37,457 nucleotides of DNA. Origin: a virus. A model generated the notes under the pieces. That model made no database searches. It was not told the origin of the DNA and saw only the letters and a program-made list of their open reading frames with translations. Position numbers and translations under genes: made by a program. The DNA lies in the IMG/VR virus record IMGVR_UViG_3300037485_000776, positions 1 to 37,457 of that record, one strand, 5' to 3'. Below are positions 8,814 to 34,183 of the stretch, piece by piece; positions within the stretch are counted from its first letter, which is position 1, and every line of letters starts with the position of its first letter.

Positions 8814-9803
8814 TTAAGAATCAAATTGCGCGGCGAGAATATCTCGCAGCGAACCTTTATTACCGGGCTGAACCCCAGAGGAAGCAGGACTAGAGCCTTT
8901 TACACTCACTGCGGCGGTTCTCGCCTTTTGAGCTTGGGCTTGTTCTAGTGCTTTTTTCTGAGCTTCGGCGCGTTGCTGATCTAACAGGGATTGCCTGATG
9001 TCGGGACGCATCCAGACAGCCATTTCATACGCTTCTTGTAAATCTTTGGCGCTGCCGGTTTCCAGCAGGGTAGCCATTTCATTACGCACTGCGTCAAAGT
9101 GCGGACGGTCAGGTGTAGCAAATGACGCTAACTGATCTTGCACCATTGCTTGTTCCTGTTGCCTAGCCTGATTTTGCCACATTTGTTGCTGATTACGCAA
9201 CACCTGTAGCTCGTTCATTAAATATTGAGTTTGCGGGTCAACTTGGGGCGGTTCTTGAACCTGATTTAAGTCGATGTTGTATTCTTTTGCCAGTTGAGCG
9301 AAATACTGCGCCTTTGTCACCGGGTCTGACGTTCTCAGCGTCATATCGGCACGCATTAAAGCGTTGATAGCGGTCGGCGCATCTACGCCTAAACTCTGTA
9401 AATGTTGCTGGTAAGGCGCTATTGCTGCGTCATAAGCCTTTGCGCGTTCAGAATGGCCTTTGAACTCTGAAACGCCCTTGTGAAAGTCAGATTCGCGTCG
9501 TTCGGCTTCTTGGGTAAGTATTTTGATTTCATCAGTCGTCAAAGTTTCCCCGCGGTCAGCCTTTAGGAAAGCTTCTTGTGCTGCGGGTTTCCAACTTGAC
9601 GGGGCTTTGCGCGGGGCGGGTTCTGGTGTTGGTTCCGGCGTGGCTTCTGGTTCTTTCTTGGCAAACTTGCCATCCTCTGACCTGGCTCTCGGTTCTTTAG
9701 TTTCTTCCGTGGTTACTTCGGGGGTAACTTCTGGCGCGGCTTCGGCCTCTGTCGTTTCGTGTTGTTCGAGTGCGCTTTCTAGGGCTTCGGCTATGGATGG
9801 CAT
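8814..9803 (-). CDS. Scaffolding protein (329 aa)
   Basis: Directly upstream of the capsid gene. Acidic, Pro-rich N-terminus (EPTPEPAP) followed by long Q/E/A-rich helical stretches. Composition and position are typical of a scaffold. Confidence 0.6.
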   Translation of the reverse strand: MPSIAEALESALEQHETTEAEAAPEVTPEVTTEETKEPRARSEDGKFAKKEPEATPEPTPEPAPRKAPSSWKPAAQEAFLKADRGETLTTDEIKILTQEAERRESDFHKGVSEFKGHSERAKAYDAAIAPYQQHLQSLGVDAPTAINALMRADMTLRTSDPVTKAQYFAQLAKEYNIDLNQVQEPPQVDPQTQYLMNELQVLRNQQQMWQNQARQQEQAMVQDQLASFATPDRPHFDAVRNEMATLLETGSAKDLQEAYEMAVWMRPDIRQSLLDQQRAEAQKKALEQAQAQKARTAAVSVKGSSPASSGVQPGNKGSLRDILAAQFDS

Positions 9804-16659: not shown

Positions 16660-16996
16660 TCTTTGGGTCTACGATTGTTCTGCGTGTCTCTTGCACTTGA
16701 ACCGGACCGCCTTCAGCCCCGACAAGCTCAGTCCTTGCCAACTTGGGCGCGGCAAACTCAGCCAGCTTTGCGAGATTGTCCAACGCTTTCGCCGGGTCTG
16801 GCTTTATATCGTACTCTGGCATACCCTCGGCCACCTGTTTGAGCCACTTGGCAACGTTATCAGCATTGCCCTCCAACAGCTTGTTGATGGTTTCCCTGAA
16901 TTCCCTTGTGGCTTTGTTCGGTGTCCCGGCAGTTCTTCCTCCGGTCTTTGGTGTTCCTTTAGGCCGACCAAAGCCGGATTTCGGCTTAGTAGTCAT
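16643..16996 (-). CDS. terS: Putative terminase small subunit (117 aa)
   Basis: Basic N-terminus (KPKSGFGRPKGTPKTGGRTAGTPNK) and helical remainder. It is the first gene after the late promoter and lies immediately upstream of terL. Confidence 0.6.
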   Translation of the reverse strand: MTTKPKSGFGRPKGTPKTGGRTAGTPNKATREFRETINKLLEGNADNVAKWLKQVAEGMPEYDIKPDPAKALDNLAKLAEFAAPKLARTELVGAEGGPVQVQETRRTIVDPKNDRSS

Positions 16997-17026
16997 AATC
17001 TATCCATTTTTTACTATAGATAGATT
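16997..17026 (-). promoter_or_regulatory. Perfect 8-bp inverted repeat (AATCTATC / GATAGATT) between the late -10 box and the terS ATG: operator-like palindrome
   Basis: 16997-17004 pairs perfectly with 17019-17026. It begins 2 nt from the -10 box and ends at the start codon. terS has no SD. Confidence 0.5.
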
Positions 17027-17027
17027 T

Positions 17028-17055
17028 ATTCTACACAATTGCATTATTTTGGCAA
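17028..17055 (-). promoter_or_regulatory. Sigma70-like promoter for the late (structural) operon
   Basis: Minus-sense TTGCCA-16 nt-TAGAAT, preceded by the TTGTG shared with the other promoters. Confidence 0.55.
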
Positions 17056-17279
17056 CACTTATAAATAACGCGCATTAGTCTGCGCTTTGCTGTTTTTGGC
17101 TCCCACCAACCTGCATTTTTTGATTTCCCGCTGAAAACAATACTTTCCTGTTCGGTAAATGGTCTTAATACAAGTTCATGGTTTCCGTGCCTAGCCCGGT
17201 AATAGAATGGAACTCCGTTTATATGCCCTTCAAATTGATTAGGCATTTGTTCGCAGGTCATTTTTACGCTTATTTTCAT
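17031..17279 (-). CDS. Hypothetical protein, paralog B of a tandem pair (82 aa)
   Basis: ATG 17279 forms an ATGA overlap with the upstream paralog. The two share FEGHINGVPFYYRA(R/K)HGNHE(L/I)VLRPFTEQESIVFSG.SKNAGWW. Confidence 0.6.
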   Translation of the reverse strand: MKISVKMTCEQMPNQFEGHINGVPFYYRARHGNHELVLRPFTEQESIVFSGKSKNAGWWEPKTAKRRLMRVIYKCCQNNAIV

Positions 17280-17560: not shown

Positions 17561-17988
17561 TTTGCATTCCACTTTATCGGGTCGCCATCAATGTCAACAA
17601 CATAAACAGGCAGCGCCATTGTTTCCGCGTCTGCTTTTATTCGCTCTTTCCATACTCCTGGAATTTGTGCGTACTTTTCCCCCGTTATTGTCCGACATGG
17701 CTCTAGTTTTGGGTAGCTTTCTTTTGCAAGCAGTCTGTCCAGTTCTTTAGTCTCGCCCTGTTTGAAAAGTTTGTAAACTACTTCCAGCGGCCATTCTGGG
17801 TCGTCTGTTTTGTTCCAGCGTATTTGTAAATGCGCCCCAAACCACTCAACTGGCGCTAATCTTGGCCTGCAGTCGGTTAGTGTCATTTCCTCTGCCTTTT
17901 CGCATATAGCGCCGCATTCATCGCAAACGTAGCCAGTCCCGCTTCTTCCCCGCCATTCATGGCCTTTGTAAAGTATTGGCTTGTCCAT
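17557..17988 (-). CDS. Hypothetical protein (143 aa)
   Basis: Track ORF with the block YVCDECGAIC. No family recognised. Confidence 0.6.
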   Translation of the reverse strand: MDKPILYKGHEWRGRSGTGYVCDECGAICEKAEEMTLTDCRPRLAPVEWFGAHLQIRWNKTDDPEWPLEVVYKLFKQGETKELDRLLAKESYPKLEPCRTITGEKYAQIPGVWKERIKADAETMALPVYVVDIDGDPIKWNAK

Positions 17989-17998
17989 GTTAAACGCG

Positions 17999-18271
17999 CT
18001 ACTGCATATAGTTCGTCATGTACCACGACTGGGCGCTGCACTCACTCACAACGTCAGCCACATCGTCGTCCGATTGTCGCGGCATCTTGGCGGCCAGCTC
18101 CATACACTTTACAAACAGCGCCTCACGCGCAGCGCCTCTACGGCCTCTACGTGCGTCTTGTGCCAACTTGGCCACAGAAGCCTCCTCGGTCGGCGTAAAT
18201 GCGCCGTTTGTGCAGCCGGTTAGTGTTGCGGCCAGCGCCGCCATCAGTAGTGCTCTTATCGTCAAAATCAT
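17999..18271 (-). CDS. Small lipoprotein (90 aa)
   Basis: Signal peptide plus lipobox: MILTIRALLMAALAATLTG|C. SD GGAGA. Hand-counted G+C is 57-63% on lines 18061 and 18121 versus 43% on line 18481. Confidence 0.7.
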   Translation of the reverse strand: MILTIRALLMAALAATLTGCTNGAFTPTEEASVAKLAQDARRGRRGAAREALFVKCMELAAKMPRQSDDDVADVVSECSAQSWYMTNYMQ

Positions 18272-18337
18272 TGTAATCTCCTAATTTTTATATATCAAAA
18301 TATAAAGCTGTATAAGTTGGGGCTTATTACCCCGGAT

Positions 18338-18423
18338 GTCCGTAGCCCTATTCGTCAATAGGGTTCACCTGTAAATTCAGGCCATACGCTTTGCAGGCTA
18401 CTTTCGTAGCTCCTGTGCCGGAC
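18338..18423. ncRNA. Structured intergenic element: four-way-junction (cloverleaf-like) fold, unclassified
   Basis: Closing helix 18338-42/18419-23 encloses three hairpins: CCCTATT-cgtc-AATAGGG (18346-18363), ACCTG/CAGG(C) (18367-82) and GCTAC-tttc-GTAGC (18397-18410). A further GGGG-cttatta-CCCC hairpin lies at 18319-18333. No ORF in the region. Confidence 0.4.
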
Positions 18424-18444
18424 TGTTCACTAATACGATTATCT

Positions 18445-18630
18445 TTAATCTTTTTCCATGCCCAATAAATTTTTTATAGCCCACGTCCACTTTCCTGTTT
18501 TCAGTTTTGACAGAACAAACATGGTTAAAAGTGCGGCAACAGTTGCGTATAAAATACCAATTGCCATCATTCCGTTAAGTATGAAAAATACCCATGTTAG
18601 CCAATAAACAATCGGAATTGCTAAAAACAT
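18445..18630 (-). CDS. Small 2-TM membrane protein (61 aa)
   Basis: Two hydrophobic helices and a basic tail. Strong SD AAGGAGAG 5 nt upstream. Flanked on both sides by structured non-coding sequence. Confidence 0.6.
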   Translation of the reverse strand: MFLAIPIVYWLTWVFFILNGMMAIGILYATVAALLTMFVLSKLKTGKWTWAIKNLLGMEKD

Positions 18631-18656
18631 AATTCTCTCCTTAGTGAGTTGTTAAT

Positions 18657-19109
18657 CCCCGTCTTTCCGGGGTGTCATCTAGGTGCTGCATTTAGAACTG
18701 CCTAGCCAATTCGAGCAAACGAAAGCAGCGTCCGTTTTGTTAGCGGCGGGTGCTGATCTCCCGCATGTCTGCATTGCAAAGTCAGGTACGGGTCATCAAC
18801 CTAGCAGACAGAAGACTCTTTGACACCGTTTTTGCGTATCAGCCTACGCATTCACTAACAAGTCTAGGGTCTGCTCGCATAAAGCAGCGGATAAGAAGAA
18901 AGGATCAAACCGAAACAACGGCGCTAACCCGTTGCCAGACCCTAGACTTTTTAGCACTAACATTGAAGCGTGCCGGTGCTGAACTCCGGCTTGCCGATTT
19001 TCCCCGCATCGGTCGCATCGCGTGTACTTCCCGCCATGTTTCGCGGTTTTCTGGTCGCTCGCATCAGCCTGCGCATTCCGCTTCAATGTTAGTCCCCGTA
19101 CTTTCCGGA
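18657..19109. ncRNA. Large structured non-coding element (about 450 nt), unclassified; strand undetermined
   Basis: Perfect long-range helices at 18860-73/18936-49 (14 bp) and 18956-70/19079-93 (15 bp), at least eight further hairpins, and three paralogous hairpins with loop TGCTGA(T/A)CT. No SD-led ORF. Confidence 0.55.
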
Positions 19110-19110
19110 T

Positions 19111-19263
19111 TCAGTGCTTATTTTCCCTCATTTTTGCTATCTTATCCAACATTTCCCGCTTTTCCATTAAAGCTTTTGCTTTCTTTTCTGCTTCCGCTTT
19201 ACTCATTCCCGCGTCGTATTGAAGTATTGCTGCGCGTTCTTCAAATGCTTCGCGGTCAGTCAT
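19111..19263 (-). CDS. Hypothetical small protein (50 aa), MTDREAFEERAAILQYDAGMSKAEAE motif
   Basis: Below the track cutoff; hand-translated codon by codon. ATGA overlap with the upstream gene and a TGA stop at 19111. Confidence 0.6.
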   Translation of the reverse strand: MTDREAFEERAAILQYDAGMSKAEAEKKAKALMEKREMLDKIAKMRENKH

Positions 19264-19613
19264 TTTGTTTCCTTTAGTTTTTCTTCAAGTTTTGAGGCAA
19301 ATGTGTTCCAGTCACCCCCAAGTACGTCCATACCCGCTGAATGCCATGCTTCATATACTGCGTCAAAGAATAACCCTTGCCATTCGCGTCGCTCCTGCTC
19401 TGGCGGGGCGGTGTAGAGTCGTTGGTCAGTTTTGTCAGTCATTTCATTCTCTGTCAGCCCTTGCCATTCGCGCTCTGGCTGCGCTAGTCGTTCGCGTAGG
19501 TCATTAAAAGCGTGGTACTGAAGATAGCGCCACTCGGCTTTTGTCATGTCGTTTTTGCTATCCAACGCCACCATCGCTTGATACATTATTTCTCGGTCAG
19601 TTTTGTCAGTCAT
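19260..19613 (-). CDS. Hypothetical protein with internal duplication (117 aa)
   Basis: MTDKTD...REWQGL occurs twice. The 24-nt string GGTCAGTTTTGTCAGTCATTTCAT is present at 19425-48 and 19595-618, the latter spanning this gene's own start. Confidence 0.6.
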   Translation of the reverse strand: MTDKTDREIMYQAMVALDSKNDMTKAEWRYLQYHAFNDLRERLAQPEREWQGLTENEMTDKTDQRLYTAPPEQERREWQGLFFDAVYEAWHSAGMDVLGGDWNTFASKLEEKLKETK

Positions 19614-19918
19614 TTCATACCCTTTCCAATTTCAGCAGCAGCACGGAGAACCGCTCGGCGTGCGGCTTTTCTAGCACTGTGACCTAAAGGTTCGCTATAA
19701 ACCACCATGTCAAAACAAGCATTTGCGTATTGATCTGTAACCATTAACTCTATTTTTAGATCTACTGCCAGCCGAAACGCATCGCCATCGTCGTCGAGCG
19801 GGTTCCACTTAATGCCCGGAAGTACCTCCGCAAAACACCAAGGTTCAACATCGCCGTGCCATGTAATTTTAATTCCGACCGCCTTCGCAGCAAGTTCAAG
19901 CATTTTGCGGTCAGTCAT
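19610..19918 (-). CDS. Hypothetical protein, paralog pair member (102 aa)
   Basis: Shares LELAAKA.G......W.P...D.DAF.LA..LK with the upstream gene. ATGA overlaps on both sides. Confidence 0.6.
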   Translation of the reverse strand: MTDRKMLELAAKAVGIKITWHGDVEPWCFAEVLPGIKWNPLDDDGDAFRLAVDLKIELMVTDQYANACFDMVVYSEPLGHSARKAARRAVLRAAAEIGKGMK

Positions 19919-33252: not shown

Positions 33253-33686
33253 AATTCCCTTTTCCCACCCAAAGAGTATTCTAAATCAGCAGGACTAGGC
33301 ACTTCTTTGAAAGCGTAACGCCAGCCGTTTGCATTCAAATCATCAACAACCATCTCAGAACAAATCACGCCCCCGGCATTACGGGTACTTTTCCCGAAAA
33401 GATGGTAAATAGGTCTCAGACCAAATAGTATGTAATCAATTACTCCGTATCTAGCCTCGTCAGTGTCAAGTTTGTGGTCAAGGTATTCAGACGTGATAGA
33501 TACGGGCGCTTCGATTAAAACGGTTTTTTTATTGTTGTAAATAGACCACAGTCTACGGCGACGTATCAAGTTCATATCCCAGAAATGCAACTCATTCGTA
33601 AAGCCGACGTGATAGCACGTAGAACCAGTGAAAATCTTGGTCAGCGTGCTACTGGGCTTTTTGCCATAGATAAAAGCGATCTTCAT
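33234..33686 (-). CDS. Permuted NlpC/P60 (YiiX/C92-like) peptidase candidate (150 aa)
   Basis: His block TGSTCYHVGF precedes Cys block GGVICSEMVVDDL, the permuted order seen in the YaeF/YiiX family. Confidence 0.45.
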   Translation of the reverse strand: MKIAFIYGKKPSSTLTKIFTGSTCYHVGFTNELHFWDMNLIRRRRLWSIYNNKKTVLIEAPVSITSEYLDHKLDTDEARYGVIDYILFGLRPIYHLFGKSTRNAGGVICSEMVVDDLNANGWRYAFKEVPSPADLEYSLGGKRELWNSKD

Positions 33687-34183
33687 TATTCACCGTACAC
33701 CGGCGGCCAACCGCCACTAAAGTCGTAGTTTGCCGGGTCTGCGCTTGCTTCCATAGCTGCTTTGTGCGCTTCCCCTGCCAGGAATATAGCCCGGTCACTT
33801 TGCGAAGCTGCCGTTAAAATCTGCAGTGCCAAAGCCCAAGTCATCTCAATAAATGAGCCGTCCATAGTTTTCCACATAATGCCTGGCGGTACTGAACCAT
33901 TCAAAACATTCAGCCCTAGCTGTTGGCCACGACTGATAAGATCAGAGTGGAACCATTTGCCGCCAGCCTGATACCCGCCAGACAATGTGCGCCTTTCGCG
34001 CTCGGCTTTGATAGCTTCCCATTTCGCTGCTTTGATTTCAGCTATCGCATCAGCCGGTTCCGGCGTGTTGCCTTCGGCAAGCCATTCCTGATAGGAAGCA
34101 TAATCAGTATTGGCTGGGTCAGCCGGAATAAAAGCGCCGTCAGTGGTTCGTAGAATGCTGGATGTGTTGGTTAGTTTGTACAT
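33686..34183 (-). CDS. DUF4376-like protein (tail-fibre-associated, 165 aa)
   Basis: Directly after the tail fibre gene. ..[14 protein letters not shown]...GG......WFHSD..SR.Q.. matches the pattern as recalled for DUF4376. Confidence 0.5.

Follow-up and report, generated by a model that had tools for sequence, protein, structure and literature searches.

What could read a hairpin loop that recurs almost unchanged within a region of a phage genome that seems to encode no protein? The window analysed here is the whole 37,457-nt stretch of IMG/VR record IMGVR_UViG_3300037485_000776, a complete 37.5-kb viral record with terminal repeats, all of whose long ORFs lie on the minus strand. A sequence-only reading of this DNA had described three paralogous hairpins with a common loop and compensatory stem changes, and had proposed that they are repeated recognition sites for a single protein or RNA partner, comparable in logic to boxB or coat-protein operators. 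Two of these hairpins, each a 5-bp stem with a 9-nt loop, do lie exactly at 18746–18764 and 18972–18990. A degenerate 19-nt pattern describing them has two matches in the window (still two with two mismatches allowed) and matched none of 100 dinucleotide-preserving shuffles; by chance, 0.38 copies of the bare 9-nt loop would be expected; there are three, one of which (at 8974) is unrelated. These hairpins are real, paralogous and selected as structure, as that reading had held. Their conserved loop probably has a different explanation from the one first offered: comparison across phages indicates that the region is an array of separately folding RNA modules on the minus strand, two of which (E0 and E2) belong to one widespread phage RNA family in which this hairpin (hairpin A) is locked to a second one (hairpin B).

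Two hairpins within a covarying module

A repeat scan revealed that the two hairpins recur with a period of 226 nt together with a second conserved block (18835–18853 and 19060–19078), and that each such pair lies inside an inverted repeat. Read on the RNA strand, the resulting module begins with P1 (7-bp core), continues through AAU, hairpin B, a variable insert, AA and hairpin A, and closes with P1′. Hairpin B, set off from P1 by the 3-nt AAU linker, has a 4–5-bp stem and a GGCUGA loop. Hairpin A has a 5-bp stem, a loop that reads AGAUCAGCA or AGUUCAGCA, and runs directly into the P1′ strand. The insert between hairpins B and A is of unrelated sequence and 8–162 nt in length; in its minimal form the whole module measures 67 nt (L140:6692–6759). 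Both window copies carry the AAU linker and a hairpin B with the GGCUGA loop, together with a GCUGA/UCAGC complementarity between the loops.

An exact-pattern scan of IMG/VR found the 19-nt hairpin A pattern in at least 120 viral contigs, with G+C contents of 37–68% and unrelated flanks, so the motif does recur in other phages, where it had been suggested to look for it. The 121 matches in these contigs and the window's own two give 123 pattern matches; in 99 of the 123 listed, the hairpin B motif lies within 200 nt (8–162 nt away), and in these 99 the outer sequences are mutually complementary though they differ between phages. Rather than free-standing sites of the boxB or coat-protein-operator type, the hairpins are one arm of a ~125–140-nt module found in very diverse phages.

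The pairing of this module is preserved while its sequence changes. Across 96 unique copies, pairs 1–7 of P1 are Watson–Crick in 92–96%, with up to four base-pair types per position; from pair 8 the pairing declines yet stays above random, indicating that many copies have a longer stem. In alignment A1 (64 sequences), 97% of cells are paired, and in 12 of the 17 pairs both partners vary. Across 500 shuffles not one reaches any of five measures, and sliding the partners by 1–3 columns drops pairing to 30–48%. RNAalifold, unaided, predicts the same three helices. The stem of hairpin B, like P1, covaries strongly in the family. For hairpin A, which the search pattern fixed, the apparent invariance is partly ascertainment and pair 3 is the one stem pair that can be judged; its swap between G:C and C:G, pointed out from the window alone, is a genuine compensatory change (C:G in 62 and G:C in 2 sequences of the 64-sequence alignment).

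The inserts behave differently from the scaffold around them. They fold in many different ways, a T-arm-like hairpin is present in only 4 of 96, and no 8-mer occurs in more than 5 of the 96; a search for antisense targets of the inserts within the phage returned none reaching 13 nt.

We built a covariance model of the module, R1, which detects two copies in the window (79 and 70 bits) and more than 130 in other phages. E0 and E2 are the only two credible matches in the window, the next best having an E value of 0.06. This weak match (16964–17097 on the minus strand, 12.5 bits; also at L003:5785–5918) contains a hairpin resembling B close to where the ORF upstream of the large terminase gene begins, and is probably a chance hit or a decayed copy.

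A probable loop–loop helix inside the module

The GCUGA of loop B is complementary, over 5 nt, to the UCAGC of loop A in the same module. Invariant loops cannot prove pairing and variants were therefore sought, among secondary copies found by R1 and by two scans in which hairpin B was fixed and one loop base varied. Compensated combinations were found as GUUGA/UCAAC in L291 and L303 (whose P1 stems differ), GGUGA/UCACC in L083 and UGGUG/CACCA in L068, and L138 shows a co-deletion, GCGA/UCGC, with one base lost on each side. Five more loop changes are wobble-compatible. Uncompensated changes place A at the second kissing base in L284, L285 and L306, U at the fourth kissing base in L308–L310, and A at the first kissing position in three loci; the kiss therefore tolerates mismatches or is lost in some copies. 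An A at the fourth kissing base of loop A always coincides with a U in loop B: 2 of the 4 copies with that U have it, against 0 of ~125 others (p ~7e-4, our own hypergeometric count). Judged by these co-changes, the predicted 5-bp loop–loop helix is a real family feature that tolerates some mismatches. It covers five of the nine bases of loop A and explains part of the loop's conservation.

The proposal that one partner accounts for the conserved loop consequently survives in part. An RNA partner exists; it is the loop of the second hairpin inside the same module, ~65–160 nt from hairpin A (18834–18849 for the first copy, 19059–19074 for the second), and not a molecule shared among the sites. 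Could the three loops still be repeated sites for one trans-acting protein or RNA that reads the loop, the stems serving only to present it? The loop of hairpin A, and even its stem, is almost invariant across phages of very different G+C, as such a reader would demand. The bases that are invariant outside the loop–loop helix (positions 1–3 and 9 of loop A, the AAU linker and the AA preceding hairpin A) are likewise constrained by more than pairing. A fixed external reader, however, gives no reason to expect a loop A that co-varies with loop B of its own module, and the compensatory A/B loop variants of other phages speak against three equivalent operator sites read by a shared factor. The third hairpin, moreover, has a different loop and a different putative partner, and in real elements hairpin A is never alone, P1 and hairpin B accompanying it. 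The carriers (P1, HK620, N4-like podophages, large Klebsiella myophages and Pseudomonas phages) have no obvious common phage protein, so that any factor must be host-derived. Recognition in trans is thus, to our judgement, quite unlikely as the explanation of the three loops. Within the module held together by its own loops, the invariant bases outside the helix leave room for a protein or tertiary contact, and a conserved host factor may also read the folded module.

The RNA strand

The hairpins had been read on the plus strand; several observations place the functional RNA on the minus strand instead. On the plus reading, each of the 15 non-Watson–Crick pairs of hairpin B would be A:C or C:A; only the minus reading turns them into G·U. 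Every tRNA gene within 1 kb of an element (15 of 15) is co-oriented with the RNA. Of the loci, 35 have their long ORFs mainly on the RNA strand and 9 mainly on the other, with 77 undecided. Mismatches in P1 alone do not discriminate between strands. All genes of the window are on its minus strand, in agreement with the RNA strand.

This asymmetry also bears on whether the 19–20-nt hairpin sequences act as DNA, as recombination linkers or single-stranded DNA structures for which RNA structure would be incidental. Close relatives do reshuffle modules and inserts exactly at the conserved scaffold sequences (below), but recombination at conserved blocks is more likely to follow from their conservation than to be what they are for. 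The compensatory changes in P1, hairpin B and the loop–loop helix keep pairing and not sequence, the G·U pairs of hairpin B exist on one strand only, and orientation relative to tRNA genes is strict. A role at the DNA level is accordingly extremely improbable, and we continue with the module as an RNA.

Architecture of the array

The two modules lie in an array (Table 1) whose fold has a z-score of −2.7 over 18631–19110; the large terminase gene is ~2 kb beyond it in the direction of transcription. On the RNA strand, 5′ to 3′, the order is a small hairpin, E2, E1, E0, a two-hairpin tail, a second small hairpin and the ribosome-binding site (RBS) of a 61-aa ORF.

Table 1. Features of the RNA array, in window coordinates
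Feature	Positions	Strand	Description	Basis
Whole RNA array	18631–19110	−	480 nt without credible ORFs	ORF map; flanked by two small minus-strand ORFs
Opening hairpin	19108–19094	−	Small hairpin opening the array; resembles the hairpin at 18657–18672	Direct repeat D2
Module E2	18956–19093	−	Complete scaffold module	Inverted repeat I2 (15 nt, 100% complementary); R1 match
Hairpin B of E2	19059–19074	−	Loop GGCUGA; predicted kissing GCUGA at 19068–19064	Direct repeat D4; covariance-model alignment; family covariation
Hairpin A of E2	18972–18990	−	RNA loop AGUUCAGCA; UCAGC at 18982–18978	Sequence and covariance-model alignment
Module E1	18855–18954	−	Long hairpin between E2 and E0; 19-bp stem, 62-nt top	Inverted repeat I1 (95% complementary)
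Module E0	18737–18861	−	Complete scaffold module	R1 match (78.7 bits, E = 2.5e-23)
Hairpin B of E0	18834–18849	−	Loop GGCUGA; GCUGA at 18843–18839	Repeat scan and covariance-model alignment
Hairpin A of E0	18746–18764	−	RNA loop AGAUCAGCA; UCAGC at 18756–18752	Sequence and covariance-model alignment
Tail hairpin 1	18717–18737	−	5-bp stem; 11-nt loop containing GCUGC (18729–18725)	Read from sequence
Tail hairpin 2	18679–18705	−	Third hairpin of the sequence-only reading; 5-bp stem; 17-nt loop ending GCAGCA; GCAGC at 18689–18685	Stem covaries in relatives
Closing hairpin	18657–18672	−	Small G+C hairpin closing the array; 5 bp, 6-nt loop; just before the RBS of the 61-aa ORF	Direct repeat D2; conserved in relatives

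The covariance-model match to E2 spans 18963–19086 (70.3 bits, E = 1.3e-20). P1 of E2 is extended, with 15 perfect base pairs (18956–18970 with 19079–19093) after one G/A mismatch, and one additional A precedes P1′. P1 of E0 has 7 bp, one being U·G (18853–18859 with 18739–18745), and near-identical copies of E0 occur in L005, L007 and L008. E1 is a module of a different kind from the scaffold modules E0 and E2. Its hairpin appears in both the MFE and centroid folds of either strand and is also present in relatives L003 and L008; its base competes with P1 of E0 for 18855–18859.

The third hairpin had been taken for the same loop with an insertion. It is present and its stem covaries, and the description of its loop is only loosely right: what it has in common with hairpin A is the 3′ end of the loop (GCAGCA versus UCAGCA, RNA strand). 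It is not a member of R1, which with filters off gives no match between 18631 and 18736; no P1 encloses it, and only the loop–loop logic is common with the family. Among ~28 related loci, pair 4 of its stem is G:C or A:U with no mixed forms, a change that probably reflects a single evolutionary event. In every one of these loci the module preceding the tail has a P1′ identical to, or one base off, that of E0, and tail hairpin 1 occurs as two lineage variants whose stems differ around the same loop core. The third hairpin is accordingly part of a 3′ tail of E0 that is specific to this lineage. The GCUGC of tail hairpin 1 (versus GCUGA in hairpin B) is complementary to the GCAGC of the third hairpin, so that the tail could form the same kind of kiss, the A-to-C change being matched by a U-to-G change; because neither loop varies among the ~28 loci, this is a kiss that we infer.

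An intrinsic terminator was considered and rejected for this region. A scan of 17900–19700 gave no terminator-like sites, and there is no U tract after the hairpin at 18657–18672 or after any of the three hairpins first described; such promoter-like sites as were found are weak. The 61-aa ORF directly after the array (18445–18630, minus strand) is very hydrophobic, is present in L005 and is absent from L003, L007 and L008. It has no Pfam or PHROG match, and the flanking proteins likewise have no informative Pfam or PHROG hits.

Reshuffling in related phages

At the DNA level, neither the region nor the 20 kb around it had a match among phage relatives, and related phages were retrieved via a neighbouring protein. 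In L004 a single block, 19110 to 18437, is missing in full, and with it the whole array and the 61-aa ORF. L005 has E0, the tail and the ORF, and is without E2 and E1. In L003, E1 is present and the E2 outer stem surrounds a different interior. Additional modules occur in L007 and L008, built on the same P1 and hairpins around other inserts. Given the single block lost from L004 and the different subsets held by the other relatives, the array behaves as an indel cassette.

Two further observations concern what else occupies these positions. At L003:4625–4900 and in L007 around 1819–1870, the E2 outer stem encloses an interior with two hairpins that the model does not match, which may be a divergent sister module. 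Right after the array of L008 (2566–2652, plus strand) lies an 87-nt class-II cloverleaf with anticodon GUA and a non-canonical T loop; the Rfam tRNA model scores it at 42.9 bits only under lax filters and ARAGORN makes no call. It probably represents an atypical, tRNA-Tyr-like phage gene occupying the same slot.

Distribution and genomic slots

Carriers of the module include P1, HK620, Stx2, N4-like and Klebsiella phages, and prophages of Pseudomonadota. A short BLAST probe matched 143 GenBank phage records and 236 of 5,426 complete E. coli genomes, and none of these matches is annotated as RNA. The two copies in phage P1 flank a 58-aa ORF and come just after tRNA-Asn and tRNA-Thr. The single HK620 copy sits between qut and the late terminator, where phages L and Sf6 carry tRNA genes (PMC8022706). 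Phage lambda gave no R1 match. HK022 (L356) has a weak, 19-bit match at 33581–33692 (plus strand), between a DnaB-like helicase gene and Q, which may be a degenerate copy.

In bacterial data limited to one genome per species, the exact string of hairpin A is found in many phyla, yet 111 of the 120 matches are without hairpin B; the remaining 9 are full elements, all in Pseudomonadota. Many of the cellular matches (L158–L277) are coding sequence, including that for the Walker-A region of sigma-54-dependent activators and for other conserved proteins of high-G+C genomes, and pattern-only hairpin searches consequently mislead outside phages.

These settings allow a further alternative to be weighed, that the array is a cis-acting leader governing how transcripts of the 61-aa ORF, and after it the packaging genes, are processed, stabilised or translated, and releases no free small RNAs. 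The array is inside a minus-strand operon in which a promoter or terminator of its own was not detected, its last hairpin abuts the RBS of the 61-aa ORF, and the HK620 copy is in a late leader, all as a leader would be placed. L003, L007 and L008 nonetheless keep modules without the 61-aa ORF, and L004 is without both. Elsewhere the modules sit among tRNA genes or before a terminator, positions typical of RNA genes, and their inserts are swapped like cargo. Since modules occur without a constant downstream gene, a purely cis-acting leader becomes less likely, and we consider it improbable.

Comparison with known RNAs

Searches of Rfam 15, at gathering thresholds and at E values up to 10, returned nothing relevant for the window or for consensus-like loci. 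A tRNA or tmRNA was rejected: ARAGORN reports no genes in the window and calls one of 96 elements, inside its insert, and the Rfam tRNA model is silent. In L138:523–744 (plus strand), ARAGORN calls a tRNA-Pro (CGG) within the 162-nt insert, where a tRNA-like unit would thus be nested in the scaffold.

The module nevertheless resembles the upper body of a tRNA (RF00005). Its 7-bp stem continues straight into a 5-bp hairpin, giving 12 bp comparable to acceptor plus T arm; beyond a short linker, another hairpin occupies the place of the D arm; and the loops touch, as at the elbow. Genomic slot and orientation also match those of phage tRNA genes. Unlike a tRNA, the module has no anticodon arm and has a hypervariable 8–162-nt insert in its stead, and its loops are not D or T loops and are joined by a 5-bp Watson–Crick helix. 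P1 commonly extends well past 7 bp and there is no conserved CCA-like 3′ end, which limits the likeness to the upper body. The T4 species 1 and 2 RNAs and T5 RNA1/RNA2 are tRNA-like stable RNAs in phage tRNA regions. The module is like them, by description only, in being a non-coding structured RNA among phage tRNA genes.

STnc100 (RF02076), a prophage sRNA of enterobacteria, is found in the same kind of RNA array. It was rejected as an identity for the module: the window has no match, and the match in phage P1 adjoins the modules without overlapping them. STnc100 is a neighbouring module type and not the same family. The P1 match (L156, 1823–1943, minus strand) is sub-threshold, at 33.9 bits against a cut-off of 47, and lies ~160 nt downstream of the second scaffold module; the RNA array of P1, which lies between the tRNA genes and tciA, thus seems to be a mixed one.

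Short conserved-loop hairpins repeated in one phage genome recall boxB and coat-protein operators. Whereas boxB has a GNRA-like pentaloop, a phage protein as reader and an accompanying boxA, the module has a 9-nt loop that would pair with another loop in cis. A boxB or nut site was rejected on loop size (9 and 17 nt here) and on the carriers, which are of unrelated regulatory types and without a common regulator. Purine-riboswitch three-way junctions and the SRP Alu domain offer a likeness in topology, with a closing stem, two side-by-side hairpins and kissing loops. In the riboswitch, however, the strand between the hairpins forms the ligand pocket, whereas in the module it is hypervariable in length and sequence; Rfam gave no match here either. 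The put RNA of HK022, an element of two hairpins lying shortly after the early promoters, acts in cis on RNA polymerase. The comparison with put is by position only, and the weak 19-bit R1 match in HK022 falls outside the early-promoter region.

A full-text literature search found no description of this fold. The module family may be included among the ~10,000 unnamed phage RNA candidates of Fremin et al. 2023 (PMC10690425).

A proposed scaffold RNA with exchangeable inserts

Our best guess is that the module is a stable scaffold RNA resembling the top half of a tRNA. P1 would stack on hairpin A to give a 12-bp helix like that of acceptor and T arm, hairpin B would take the place of the D arm, and the loop–loop helix would substitute for the tRNA elbow, with the insert leaving the body at the position of an anticodon arm. 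The array is probably co-transcribed with the minus-strand genes on either side and then processed into stable small RNAs, perhaps by cuts at long stems (E1 or an extended P1, for example). The role of the scaffold would be to stabilise and display its variable insert, and perhaps to engage a conserved host factor that handles tRNA.

How far this extends to function is more tentative. That the modules are excised from an operon transcript and persist as stable small RNAs, the scaffold protecting or presenting its cargo, possibly via a host factor that binds the tRNA elbow, is a reasonable possibility with somewhat less than an even chance of being right. A more ambitious version, which we regard as speculative and rather unlikely in full, would make the modules a new class of phage RNA gene. 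Here a tRNA-top-half mimic would act as a universal frame that recruits a host tRNA-handling machine (for example, RNase P or an elbow binder) to excise, stabilise or deliver exchangeable, cassette-swapped cargo, possibly decoys or guides in phage–host conflict.

The fold is common; it is unannotated in P1, HK620 and Stx2 phages, and absent from Rfam 15. The family explains many seemingly empty gaps in phage late leaders and tRNA clusters, and its conserved loop is explained, at least largely, by an internal RNA–RNA contact and not by a regulator's operator.
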